A stretch of 64,000 nt of DNA. Origin: Candidatus Heimdallarchaeota archaeon (GTDB lineage Archaea > Asgardarchaeota > Heimdallarchaeia > Hodarchaeales > Hodarchaeaceae). The stretch spans positions 32,001-96,000 of the forward strand of contig RDOB01000004.1 of the NCBI GenBank assembly GCA_011364965.1. The letters are read 5' to 3'. This document shows, in pieces, positions 1,461 through 4,714 of this stretch. The translations under genes and the position numbers were made by a program. How positions within the stretch are numbered: position 1 is the first letter of the stretch; every line of letters begins with the position of its first letter. The notes below the pieces were generated by a model. The model did not search any database, was not told the DNA's origin, and saw only the letters and a program-made list of their open reading frames with translations.

Positions 1461-2855
1461 GTGTTACAAATGACTAAACTAGATAGAAGACTCCCTCCAC
1501 CTCCTTTCAAAATCAAAGTAGTGGAACCTATTAAAATTATTCCTCAAAAAGAACGCAAATTGAGCTTAGAAGCTGCAGGATACAATATATTCAATGTAGC
1601 ATCGGAAAATGTCTATATCGATTTATTAACAGACTCAGGTACCTCTGCGATGTCTGATTTCCAATGGGCAGGACTTCTTCAGGGAGACGAAGCATATGCT
1701 CAATGTAAGAACTTTTTCCATCTTGAAAAAGTCATTAAGGAAATAACAGGCTATAAATATGTAATTCCGACTCATCAGGGTCGTAGCGCTGAAAATTTGA
1801 TATGTTTTGCTTATAATCTCAATAATGCCAAAATGGCGGTATCTAATCAATTTTTCGACACAACAAAAGCTAATATTGAAACCACAGGAGCGAAAACATT
1901 AGATCTTGTTATCCATGAAGCTTATGATACATCTTTAGTATTGGATTTCAAAGGAAATTTGGATACTAATGCATTGAAAAACACAATTGAAAAATATGAA
2001 AATATTGCCCTTATTGTATTAACTATTACCAATAACACAGGGGGAGGACAACCTGTTTCAATGAAAAATATAGCAGAAGTATCTAAAATAGCTAAATCTA
2101 ATAATATACCATTTATTTTGGATGCTGCAAGATTTGCGGAAAATGCATATTTCATTAAACTTCGTGAGAAAGGATATGGAGAAAAAACCCCAAGAGCTAT
2201 TGCGCGCGAGATGTTTTCCTATGCTGATGGTTGTATGGTAAGCGCAAAAAAAGATGGATTGGTTAATATTGGAGGATTCATCGCACTTAACGATGAGAAC
2301 ATGTTTAACAAAATTAAAGAACGTATGGTCATAATTGAAGGTTTCCCAACGTATGGAGGACTGGCAGGAAGGGATTTAGAGGCTATGGCTCGAGGATTAG
2401 AGGAAGTTCTATCAGAAGATTACCTAGAATACAGATATAATCAACTACAATATCTAGGTAACTCTCTCGCTGAGTTTGGAATCCCAGTTCTACAGCCGAT
2501 CGGGGGACATTCCGTTAATTTGGACGCACTGAAATTTTTACCTCATATCCCTCAATCGCAATTTCCAGCATGGGCTCTTGTAAATACTCTTTATGAGAGA
2601 TATGGAATAAGAGCTGTTGAGCTAGGATCAGTGATGTTTGCTAGGAAGGAAAACAATATTTGGATTTATCCTAAACTTGAACTTGTTAGATTGGCAATTC
2701 CTCGTCGAGTATACTCACAGGAACATCTAAATTATGTAATTGACTCTATCGTTGATTTATACCAGCATGGATCAGAAATTTCGGGTTATGAAATCACATA
2801 TGATCCTGGGGTACTTAGGCATTTTAATGCACGATTTAAACCTATTGTAAAATAG
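1461..2855 (+). CDS. tnaA: Tryptophanase
   Basis: DLLTDSGT, THQGR, SAKKDG (PLP lysine), RLAIPRRVY; GIRAVELG and LRHFNARF are tryptophanase-type rather than tyrosine phenol-lyase-type (ERG, LRFF). Confidence 0.9.
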   Translation: MLQMTKLDRRLPPPPFKIKVVEPIKIIPQKERKLSLEAAGYNIFNVASENVYIDLLTDSGTSAMSDFQWAGLLQGDEAYAQCKNFFHLEKVIKEITGYKYVIPTHQGRSAENLICFAYNLNNAKMAVSNQFFDTTKANIETTGAKTLDLVIHEAYDTSLVLDFKGNLDTNALKNTIEKYENIALIVLTITNNTGGGQPVSMKNIAEVSKIAKSNNIPFILDAARFAENAYFIKLREKGYGEKTPRAIAREMFSYADGCMVSAKKDGLVNIGGFIALNDENMFNKIKERMVIIEGFPTYGGLAGRDLEAMARGLEEVLSEDYLEYRYNQLQYLGNSLAEFGIPVLQPIGGHSVNLDALKFLPHIPQSQFPAWALVNTLYERYGIRAVELGSVMFARKENNIWIYPKLELVRLAIPRRVYSQEHLNYVIDSIVDLYQHGSEISGYEITYDPGVLRHFNARFKPIVK

Positions 2856-2860
2856 AAAGA

Positions 2861-2930
2861 GGTTTCAAGGAGAGGAAACTCTCCAAAAACCGTATAACAA
2901 CGAGAACTCCAATCTCCCATGCATTCTCGT
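2861..2930. terminator. Two stem-loops between convergent tnaA and Zn-ribbon genes
   Basis: GGAGAG-GAAA-CTCTCC (2869-2884) with outer GGTTT/AAACC; ACGAGAA (2900-2906) pairs with TTCTCGT (2924-2930). Confidence 0.45.
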
Positions 2931-2943
2931 GGCAATTTGGTAT

Positions 2944-3156
2944 TTAGGCAATTAGACGACGTGATAGGTAGTCAGATAGTTTTTTACTACGTGGAATTTT
3001 AGTGACAAAAGCATCCATACCGCATTCTCCACATTTTAATCGAAGAGTGCTATGGTTAACGATGGTTGTAATACTATGAGTTTGACACCAAGGGCACACG
3101 AGTTCCATTTCTGCCTGATGATGTAAATCAACATTTTCTTCAATTTCGATGGTCAT
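2944..3156 (-). CDS. Small zinc-ribbon protein (70 aa)
   Basis: CPWC...CGECG motif; GGAGG ribosome-binding site at 3164-3168. Confidence 0.8.
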   Translation of the reverse strand: MTIEIEENVDLHHQAEMELVCPWCQTHSITTIVNHSTLRLKCGECGMDAFVTKIPRSKKLSDYLSRRLIA

Positions 3157-3159
3157 TTA

Positions 3160-3300
3160 TTAACCTCCTGTCTTTTTCAAGGATGGAAAACTTCCCATTT
3201 CTGGCTTGTTTTCCGATACAGCATGGCTGTATCACACCGAGACACTCTCGGGAAACCCTTTCCTGCACGGAAACGCCACCAACTAGAAGCTAGTAGCGGG
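3160..3300 (-). ncRNA. Structured 5' leader RNA (riboswitch-like, family unassigned)
   Basis: Hairpins at 3274-3298, 3259-3273, 3237-3251 and 3215-3233, plus alternative pairings near the RBS; TTTATA box at about 3323-3328 just upstream. Confidence 0.5.
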
Positions 3301-3517
3301 ATTAGAATCTTACTTTTATCACTATAAAAACATTCTGATAAGTAATATTGTAAGAATTTACAAAATGTATATTATTTGAAGAATTATGAAATGTATTTGT
3401 CGGACGGGTTTTAAAAAAACCTTGATCAAGTTGTATTCTAGTTGAAATAAAATATTATCAGGCTTATACATATAATATTAATTCTATTCAAAACACATAA
3501 CACAACACTTTATAGGA

Positions 3518-4714
3518 ATGAATGTGGATTCAGTGAGTTCAGATGAAAATATAAATCAAATTGGATGCAAATTTGCATTGGTAGGACCTGAATTAAAATT
3601 ACAAAAAAATGTTATTCTAGAATTAAATGAAAATGGAACTATTTTAAAAATTACTCCTAATGCGAACATAAAAAGAAGATCTGCTAATGTCAGCTTTCCA
3701 CACCACTTAATTATACCTAAGCTAATAAATTCGCATATTCATCTGGGGGATAGTGCATTAAAAGACCAAGCATTTAATTTATCTTTAGATGAAGCGGTAG
3801 GGAAAACAGGACTTAAATATCAAGTAAATTCCTACTCAAAATCTGAAAGGATTGCTGCAATGAAAAATTCAATTAAAGAAATGATTTATTCAGGAACTTC
3901 AACCTGCTTAGATTTTCGAGAAGGAGGAATTGAGGGAATTAAAGAATTAATTGTAGCAAAGGAAAACTTACCTATTAATATTCAATGTTTTGGTAGATTT
4001 AACAATTCTAAAATCTTAATTGATGAAATTAGTTTATATAATGGTCTTGGCTTGTCAACTCCGATCGATTATACACTTAAGGAAATGGAGAAATTAAAAC
4101 TAATTTCTCAAGAGAACAATCTTGCTATAGCTACCCATATTGGAGAAAATGAAATGGTGATTAGCGAAGCTACGAATCAATTTGGGGATTCAGATCTTAA
4201 CATCGCTCTAAATTATTTAGATCCCAAAATTTTGGTTCATTTAATCGTTACTAGTGAAGCAGACAGAAAAAAAATCCCTAAATCTAAGTTCTTGGTATTC
4301 TGTCCAAGAGCAAATGCGTATTTTGGTCTAGGGTTTCCTCCAGTTGATTATTTCGTTCAAGCAGGATATAAAATTGGATTAGGAACCGATAACGTCATGA
4401 TTACATCTCCAAATATAATTGAAGAATTAAAATGGACATTATTGAGATTAAGGGAGAAAAAGTTATTTCTGGATCCTATTGAAGCATTAAAAATGATAAC
4501 AATTAATCCAGCTTTTAATTTAAATATCAATTCAGGTTGCTTGTATCCAAATTTCAGCGGAGATGCTTTGATAGTCAACTTAAAGACAGCAAGGACAAAT
4601 TTTAGTGAAGATCCTATTAAAAATCTTCTATTTAGAGCCCAATTCCCTTCAGATATCGATATGAATCTCTTTCATGGGAAACAAATTGGAAATGAAGAAA
4701 TTGCTTGTAAATAA
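3518..4714 (+). CDS. Metal-dependent amidohydrolase/deaminase (cytosine-deaminase/SsnA-like)
   Basis: NSHIHLGD (HxH), THIGE, LVHL, CPRAN, GLGTDN. Confidence 0.85.
   Translation: MNVDSVSSDENINQIGCKFALVGPELKLQKNVILELNENGTILKITPNANIKRRSANVSFPHHLIIPKLINSHIHLGDSALKDQAFNLSLDEAVGKTGLKYQVNSYSKSERIAAMKNSIKEMIYSGTSTCLDFREGGIEGIKELIVAKENLPINIQCFGRFNNSKILIDEISLYNGLGLSTPIDYTLKEMEKLKLISQENNLAIATHIGENEMVISEATNQFGDSDLNIALNYLDPKILVHLIVTSEADRKKIPKSKFLVFCPRANAYFGLGFPPVDYFVQAGYKIGLGTDNVMITSPNIIEELKWTLLRLREKKLFLDPIEALKMITINPAFNLNINSGCLYPNFSGDALIVNLKTARTNFSEDPIKNLLFRAQFPSDIDMNLFHGKQIGNEEIACK

Follow-up and report, generated by a model that had tools for sequence, protein, structure and literature searches.

A five-hairpin RNA leader with a covarying core precedes a small zinc-ribbon gene in one genus of Hodarchaeales

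What lies in front of the small zinc-ribbon gene near the beginning of this stretch of archaeal DNA, and what might it do there? The window (the whole stretch of DNA that was analysed, 64,000 nucleotides) carries on its minus strand an ORF of 70 codons, and a first-pass annotation, made from the letters alone, had placed before it a TATA box followed by a series of hairpins, and after its stop codon two more stems. It had read this arrangement as an unannotated cis-regulatory RNA of riboswitch type or, failing that, as a structured mRNA resembling those of type I toxins. The TATA box and every one of the hairpins were indeed found on the minus strand at the positions where they had been placed, the two stems behind the stop codon are present as well, and the minimum free energy fold of a 156-nt stretch contains all five hairpins of the leader. 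The leader is GC-rich and about 135 nt long, and it ends on its 3' side at a GGAGG sequence and the zinc-ribbon ORF. Its parts and neighbours, in the order in which they are read on the minus strand, are the following.

3361-3350, minus strand: palindromic box GTAAATTCTTAC (GTAWnnnnTTAC), 12 bp, upstream of the TATA box
3330-3323, minus strand: TATA box TTTTTATA, promoter of the leader and the ORF, with T3, T4, T5, A6 and A8 invariant in alignment A1 (described below)
3298-3274, minus strand: hairpin P1, 11 bp with a UCU loop and three G-U pairs, adjoining the predicted 5' end of the RNA
3273-3259, minus strand: hairpin P2, UUUCC-GUGCA-GGAAA, variable and dispensable
3251-3237, minus strand: hairpin P3, conserved at its base (CYGA/UCRG), variable at its tip
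3236-3234, minus strand: UGU, the near-invariant junction joining P3 to P4
3233-3215, minus strand: hairpin P4, GAUACAGC-CAU-GCUGUAUC, 8 bp, stem sequence nearly invariant, loop variable
3214-3185, minus strand: hairpin P5, with the lower helix P5a formed by GGAAAAC (3214-3208) and GUUUUCC (3191-3185)
within 3214-3185, minus strand: upper part of P5, an A-rich internal loop and then a small variable tip hairpin, P5b
3183-3179, minus strand: pyrimidine tract, UCCUU here and CYCY in orthologs, separated from P5 by one base, complementary to the ribosome-binding site
3168-3164, minus strand: Shine-Dalgarno sequence GGAGG, invariant across all orthologs
3156 (ATG) to 2944, minus strand: zinc-ribbon ORF, 70 aa
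2933-2897, minus strand: 3' UTR hairpin 1, with semi-conserved GGGAG(G)A ... UUCUC
2891-2861, minus strand: 3' UTR hairpin 2, GGAGAG-UUUC-CUCUCC inside GGUUUU...AAACC, with U-runs

P4 and P5 abut directly, with zero linker between them. The first hairpin begins about 24 nt past the TATA box and, judged from this distance, transcription would start at about 3298-3303, that is, at about the beginning of P1; the interval between P5 and the ribosome-binding site is too short for a second promoter. The leader also stands out in base composition: the GC content is 0.53 at positions 3200-3299, but at 3300-3549, in the intergenic DNA on the side of the promoter, it is 0.19-0.26. ARAGORN found no tRNA or tmRNA, and a scan for bacterial-type terminators and promoters added nothing.

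The predicted fold is considerably stronger than base composition would give. For the 156-nt stretch the folding energy is -57.7 kcal/mol, compared with -38.7 +/- 3.8 kcal/mol for 200 dinucleotide shuffles, none of which was as good (z -5.0), while the opposite (plus) strand reached a z of only -2.9. Similarly, all 20 orthologous leaders folded better than their shuffles, with z values from -3.3 to -7.8 (mean -5.3). Sixty-six other Shine-Dalgarno-led genes of the window's own genome served as controls: the region from -145 to +18 has a folding energy of -58.6 kcal/mol at the leader, whereas the control genes have a median of -27.5 and a minimum of -46.2 kcal/mol. The overall stability of the leader is thus exceptional among the genes of this genome that were compared.

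To see which parts of the leader are maintained, we aligned the 20 orthologous upstream regions (alignment A1) and, separately, their P3-onward portions (alignment A2), the latter being almost gapless. The TATA box precedes the start codon by 164-167 nt, or by 152 nt in the three orthologs in which P2 is missing through a 13-nt deletion (L007, L018 and L016); in the group of L005, P2 is merged into a longer stem. Both P1 and P2 are wholly different between subgroups in sequence and even in topology and are still hairpins, and nearly all orthologs have at the position of P1 a hairpin with a sequence of its own. It is the remainder, a core of 85 nt comprising P3, the UGU junction, P4 and P5, that has a fixed length. 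Hardly any variation is seen in the UGU junction of this core, in the stem of P4 (GAUAYAG(C)) or in that of P5a (GGAAAAY/RUUUUCC); the run G-GUG-UA does not vary in A1 or A2, and the first U of UGU is replaced by C only in L020 and L022. All the hairpin loops vary among the orthologs, so that outside the helices only the UGU junction and the A-rich internal loop are conserved, and most of the invariant bases are paired. The pyrimidine tract is kept in 18-19 of the 20 orthologs.

The first-pass annotation had proposed a search for covariation in the upstream regions of homologs, and here the stems are both conserved and covarying. In a model-based alignment of 24 sequences, 94.3% of the cells of the core are paired, compared with 37-51% when the partners are slid by 1-3 columns, and eight pairs have changed on both sides, although the sequences are close relatives from one genus and these counts overstate their independence, the independent events being few. 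Neither the covariation score nor the paired fraction was reached by any of 500 shuffles, and a MAFFT alignment gave a similar result. The base of P3 occurs in the compensatory variants CCGA/UCGG, CUGA/UCAG and CCAA/UUGG. In P4, 97.8% of the cells are paired and three pairs have changed on both sides, with C-G becoming U-A in eight sequences; P5a is paired in 99.4% of the cells and P5b in 85%, the top pair of P5a appearing as C-G, U-G and U-A and its base changing from G-C to A-U. The non-Watson-Crick transitions in P4 and P5a comprise 12 G-U cells on the sense strand (about six events) and not a single A-C cell, a pattern that points to selection for pairing in the sense-strand RNA and not for a palindrome in the DNA. 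No contiguous covarying columns that would indicate an extra helix or a pseudoknot were found outside the nested model. From these sequence comparisons we consider it beyond reasonable doubt that this is a real structured 5' leader, transcribed together with its gene and maintained by selection at the RNA level.

The leader does not belong to any RNA family that we could recognise. A search of Rfam 15 over positions 2000-4500 on both strands (E <= 10, permissive filters) gave no family match to it; all the matches were at chance level, with 16-21 bits against cut-offs of 37-176. The 3' end of the leader was touched by two weak snoRNA models, sR7 (17.5 bits) and Afu_264 (16.3 bits), whose cut-offs are 37-40 bits, and nothing in Rfam 15 scored over P1-P4. 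The claim that the RNA is new thus stands as far as known RNA families are concerned, and so does the broader one of an unannotated, structured, cis-linked leader, which is conserved with covariation in the orthologs.

A coding leader or an N-terminal extension of the protein was rejected, as no reading frame is open across the orthologs: one frame has an invariant UGA, and the other two have UAG in eight orthologs through the C-to-U variant of P4. The invariant UGA (3234-3232, minus strand), part of GUGUGAU, is in frame with the ATG, 26 codons upstream of it. Recoding at this codon, with a selenocysteine-containing extension, was also discarded because UAA UAA intervenes before the ATG. On the plus strand the ORFs over the leader are short. 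In other metagenome-assembled genomes the database orthologs P0005-P0014 are 76-110 aa long and read through the leader, and one such extended entry holds ...GVIQPGCIGKQ..., which is P4 and P5 in translation. These N-terminal extensions are likely mis-annotated starts, i.e. annotation artefacts, and the leader in this way exposes an error made by gene callers in several metagenome-assembled genomes, in which the ORF has been extended into it.

The leader precedes the orthologous gene in 19 further genomes, one copy in each, and all of them belong to the same GTDB genus, the one that includes Ca. Hodarchaeum mangrovi (Hodarchaeales). In a DNA search, 20 of the 21 genomes of the genus were found to have the ORF together with the leader's 3' half, and a covariance model of the 85-nt core gave one strong match per genome (73-95 bits) in 19 of the 21. 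Of the two others, one has a gap of 100 N at the leader and the second lacks the gene as well. Against the remaining 62 genomes of the class, and against a sample of about 145 additional Asgard genomes, the core model produced no comparable match. We also searched 185,579 species genomes and IMG/VR with a degenerate core pattern and re-scored the matches with the covariance model; only the same 19 genomes were recovered, and no viruses. One metagenome scan yielded four more copies. The leader is single-copy in the window's genome, and no second copy or mimic of P4-P5 was found elsewhere in that assembly, which is 87% complete (best other match to the core model, 17 bits or less). Since the leader occurs once per genome and its spacing to the TATA box and to the start codon of the orthologous gene is constant, it is cis-linked to that gene. 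It is, then, an RNA motif new to Rfam and confined to one genus of Hodarchaeales.

Weak matches to the core model (21-29 bits) were seen in other genera and at a second site in one genome, G011. We rejected them as relatives of the leader. What they share with it is limited to a GGAAAAY...RUUUUCC hairpin; each is either within coding sequence or flanked by convergent genes, and in no case is a homolog of the protein close by. In several genomes of another genus of the same class (L056, L057, L059) a P5-like hairpin, GGAAAAUAAnCCA...UGGUUAUUUUCC, stands between two convergent genes; it is probably a terminator hairpin, and its likeness to P5 may be due to chance. The 100-N gap was found in a single-scaffold genome (G015), where exactly 100 N, at 1672-1771 of L021, take the place of the leader just 5' of the ribosome-binding site of the ortholog. 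Deliberate masking was considered and dropped, a run of exactly 100 N being an ordinary scaffold gap; the structured, GC-rich leader may have been the break point of this assembly.

The gene product is a hydrophilic protein of 70 aa with a CPWC ... CGEC zinc ribbon, an acidic N-terminus and a basic C-terminal tail; with nine acidic and eight basic residues it is roughly neutral. Its database homologs show 74-89% amino-acid identity, with the exception of the most distant one, P0020 (64%). No Pfam or NCBIfam model passed its cut-off for this protein, and the weak matches were to L33, eL42, eS27 and Elf1; PF05129 (Elf1) scored 15.5 bits, below its cut-off of 29.8 bits, and a true Elf1 (74 bits) is encoded elsewhere in the window's genome. 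The AlphaFold model is a three-stranded ribbon (pLDDT 68), the best PDB matches of which in Foldseek were ELOF1/Elf1 (E 0.02-0.05, TM about 0.5), so the modelled fold may be called weakly Elf1/ELOF1-like. Taken together, a PDB sequence profile, AlphaFold with Foldseek, and the ESM Atlas returned only generic zinc-ribbon similarity.

The zinc-ribbon family, with 1-4 copies per genome, is all but restricted to the genus; a single weaker homolog was seen in a sister family. Among the copies, the leader accompanies the best conserved one alone; the upstream region of the sister-family homolog lacks it and is unstructured (z -0.17). Two paralogs without the leader, in L025 (978-1733) and L027 (1467-2221), lie about 90-110 nt 3' of an ORF of 151 aa which, from its sequence, reads as a putative Lrp/AsnC-type regulator. 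The regulator ORF and the paralog apparently form a two-gene unit, and this pairing suggests that the zinc-ribbon family may be functionally linked to amino-acid-responsive regulators. The window's genome also has a distant paralog of 54 aa (G000 contig C14:120928-121044; L088 623-787), MKKLVCPWCHTPS...CPDCGMDAYV..., which lacks both the acidic N-terminus and the RRLIA tail.

These properties do not fit the suggestion of a type-I-toxin-like mRNA. Such mRNAs are likewise strongly structured transcripts of small genes with both ends folded, but the product here is a hydrophilic, highly conserved zinc ribbon without a hydrophobic helix; the zinc ribbon occurs in up to four copies per genome, and there was no sign of an antisense RNA gene. 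We therefore abandoned the toxin reading.

The sequences flanking the leader and the ORF have features of their own. The palindrome GTAWnnnnTTAC is found 15-35 nt 5' of the TATA box in 18 of the 20 orthologous promoters, in the form GTAATATATTAC in the group of L005, and in many orthologs a second palindrome, GTTATnnnnnATAAC, stands immediately before the TATA box. These palindromes are probably transcription-factor sites, and the gene may therefore be under transcriptional control as well. On the other side, the two 3' UTR stems (z -2.1) fall in the 88 nt that separate the ORF from the end of a convergent gene for a beta-eliminating lyase, hairpin 2 being 6 nt from the lyase stop codon. GGGAGGA...UUCUC and GAGAG...CUCUC hairpins are present, partly conserved, in most orthologous 3' UTRs. 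Because they are placed between convergent genes, the 3' stems are most simply taken as 3'-end or terminator elements, and hairpin 2 is probably one that is common to both genes. Hairpin 1 includes an RBS-like sequence.

What, then, does the leader do? It very probably controls its one gene. Our main reading, to which we would give a probability of roughly 40%, is that it is a translational operator recognised by a protein, possibly an autoregulatory one. P1, P2, the tip of P3 and the loops drift, whereas about 35 helical nucleotides of P4 and P5a and their spacing are frozen, a pattern suggesting that the stacked P4 and P5 are recognised in a sequence-specific manner. In the mechanism that we envisage, transcription would start about 24 nt past the conserved TATA box, so that the RNA would open with P1, and P1 could shield the 5' end. 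The 85-nt core, with P3, UGU and P4 stacked on P5, would be a platform for protein binding; the simplest candidate for the binder would be the encoded zinc-ribbon protein, acting in feedback. A protein sitting on the core, about 20 nt 5' of the ribosome-binding site and beside the complementary pyrimidine tract, could then tune the initiation of translation. The restriction to one genus and one gene speaks for a protein rather than a metabolite as the partner, a narrow distribution being typical of autoregulatory leaders that bind proteins. There are also points against such an operator: the only weak fold match of the protein is to the transcription factor Elf1/ELOF1 and not to an RNA-binding protein, and its charge is roughly neutral; no other copy of P4-P5 was found in the genome; the ribosome-binding site is not predicted to be masked to any distinctive degree; and the invariant helices could reflect the alternative pairings of a switch.

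The last point leads to the riboswitch for a metabolite or an ion, in which P3-P4-P5 would be the aptamer and binding of the ligand would alter access to the ribosome-binding site, for example through the pyrimidine tract or the GUUUUCC arm. The epithet "riboswitch-like" of the first-pass annotation was apt in so far as the leader is structured and covarying: its conserved core of fixed length lies directly 5' of the ribosome-binding site with a complementary pyrimidine tract, the invariance of the helix strands would be explained if each strand had two alternative partners, and with no match to a known family it would represent a new class, for which zinc or another metal would be the natural guess given the zinc-ribbon gene. 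It was less apt in other respects, since there is no conserved pair of exclusive pairings, most of the invariant positions are in the helices of P4 and P5a rather than in junctions or loops, and the element serves a single gene family in one genus. The mutually exclusive pairing of GGAAAAC with either GUUUCC or GUUUUCC, which had been suggested, is not a general property of the leader: the upstream pairing is available only to the leader of the window and to those of about three further genomes, i.e. in about 3-4 of the 20 orthologs, and no extra covarying helix or pseudoknot offers a substitute. Sequestration of the ribosome-binding site, also proposed at the outset, is predicted in 20 of 20 orthologs, where the unpaired probability of the site is 0.02-0.23 and the site is mostly paired with the CYCY tract; however, this is no stronger than in the 66 control genes, which have a median unpaired probability of 0.24 and of which 47% are at or below 0.23. 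As such masking is common in the controls, it is not evidence for a switch. Moreover, the sole linked gene encodes a small zinc-ribbon protein rather than a transporter or an enzyme, and the sister-family homolog of the gene does without the element. On balance a riboswitch seems to us unlikely.

The leader might instead sense nothing. Its 5' hairpins could block 5' exonucleases and set a low, fixed level of translation, or the leader could act as a simple thermometer. The stable hairpin of changing sequence at the predicted 5' end of nearly all orthologs is what one would look for in this case, the structured 3' UTR would be expected of a stabilised transcript, and P5a is A-U-rich and could melt with temperature. 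Stability does not explain, though, why P4 and P5a are near-invariant and the 85-nt geometry is fixed when P1 and P2 drift, and the U4 run is paired with the A4 of P5 rather than with the ribosome-binding site, as it would be in a FourU thermometer. We regard such a constitutive leader as unlikely, to the same degree as a riboswitch.

Still harder to sustain is a separate small RNA or attenuator, in which a stop at the U4 run in the 3' arm of P5, or cleavage, would release an RNA of about 120 nt acting in trans. The element is compact, GC-rich and very stable and has an invariant UUUU on its 3' side, and oligo-U tracts are used for termination in archaea; a run of four U is, however, a weak terminator, the element is never found apart from the ORF and keeps a fixed distance from the start codon, and no complementarity to a target was identified. 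Finally, it is highly improbable that GATACAGC-n3-GCTGTATC and GGAAAAC...GTTTTCC are DNA operators bound by a dimeric transcription factor as a roadblock within the transcribed region: both are perfect inverted repeats of conserved sequence, another conserved palindrome lies in the promoter region and paralogs of the gene are paired with a putative Lrp/AsnC regulator, but selection on DNA would not be expected to leave only G-U and never A-C in P4 and P5a, the passage from C-G through U-G to U-A is a textbook compensatory route for RNA, and P1, P2 and P3 stay paired as their sequences change.

Our literature searches found no description of a cis-regulatory RNA in Asgard archaea, and to our knowledge very few are known in archaea at all. 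The present leader is a compact candidate backed by covariation, and with its defined promoter, fixed geometry and single target gene it is directly testable in vitro; its weight is limited by its range of a single genus and by a protein with generic zinc-ribbon similarity only. We are doubtful that it will turn out to be the first Asgard-specific riboswitch or the RNA half of a new feedback circuit, with an Elf1-like zinc-ribbon factor reading a double-hairpin operator, but if either were true, a class of cis-regulatory RNA would have arisen within the closest archaeal relatives of eukaryotes.

Among the systems with which the leader can be compared, the bacterial leaders of ribosomal protein genes (L1, S15, L20) are restricted to lineages, are bound by the small protein that they encode and often overlap or flank the ribosome-binding site. 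The protein encoded here differs in not being a recognisable ribosomal protein (L33, eL42 and eS27 are far below cut-off) and in not being basic, and the window's genome yielded no rRNA-site mimic. In FourU thermometers a run of four U in a helix near the ribosome-binding site pairs with the Shine-Dalgarno sequence; here the partner of the U4 run is the A4 of GGAAAAC, within P5, and the leader is much larger and conserved in sequence. The riboswitches of archaea, according to a census, belong essentially only to the TPP and fluoride classes (McCown et al. 2017, PMC5473149). Like the present leader, these are conserved, folded 5' UTRs that adjoin the ribosome-binding site and are supported by covariation, but in our case the conservation is mostly in the helices, the element is linked to one non-metabolic gene in a single genus, and Rfam does not match it. 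In archaea L7Ae exerts feedback on its own gene through the 5' UTR (Daume et al. 2017, PMC5539422; Huang et al. 2019, PMC6298567), which provides a precedent for the proposed operator. The L7Ae element is a single k-turn stem-loop, whereas the leader described here has five hairpins in about 135 nt, and inspection of alignments A2 and A4 revealed in P3-P5 no k-turn, i.e. no 3-nt bulge with tandem G-A pairs: after UGU, the GA forms Watson-Crick pairs with the UC of P4, and conserved G-A pairs are missing from the internal loop of P5 (AAG/AA, GAA/CG, AAA/UA and others). Nevertheless, the L7Ae element is likewise a gene-specific leader structure in archaea that lies just 5' of the start site, and by way of it a protein regulates its own translation.
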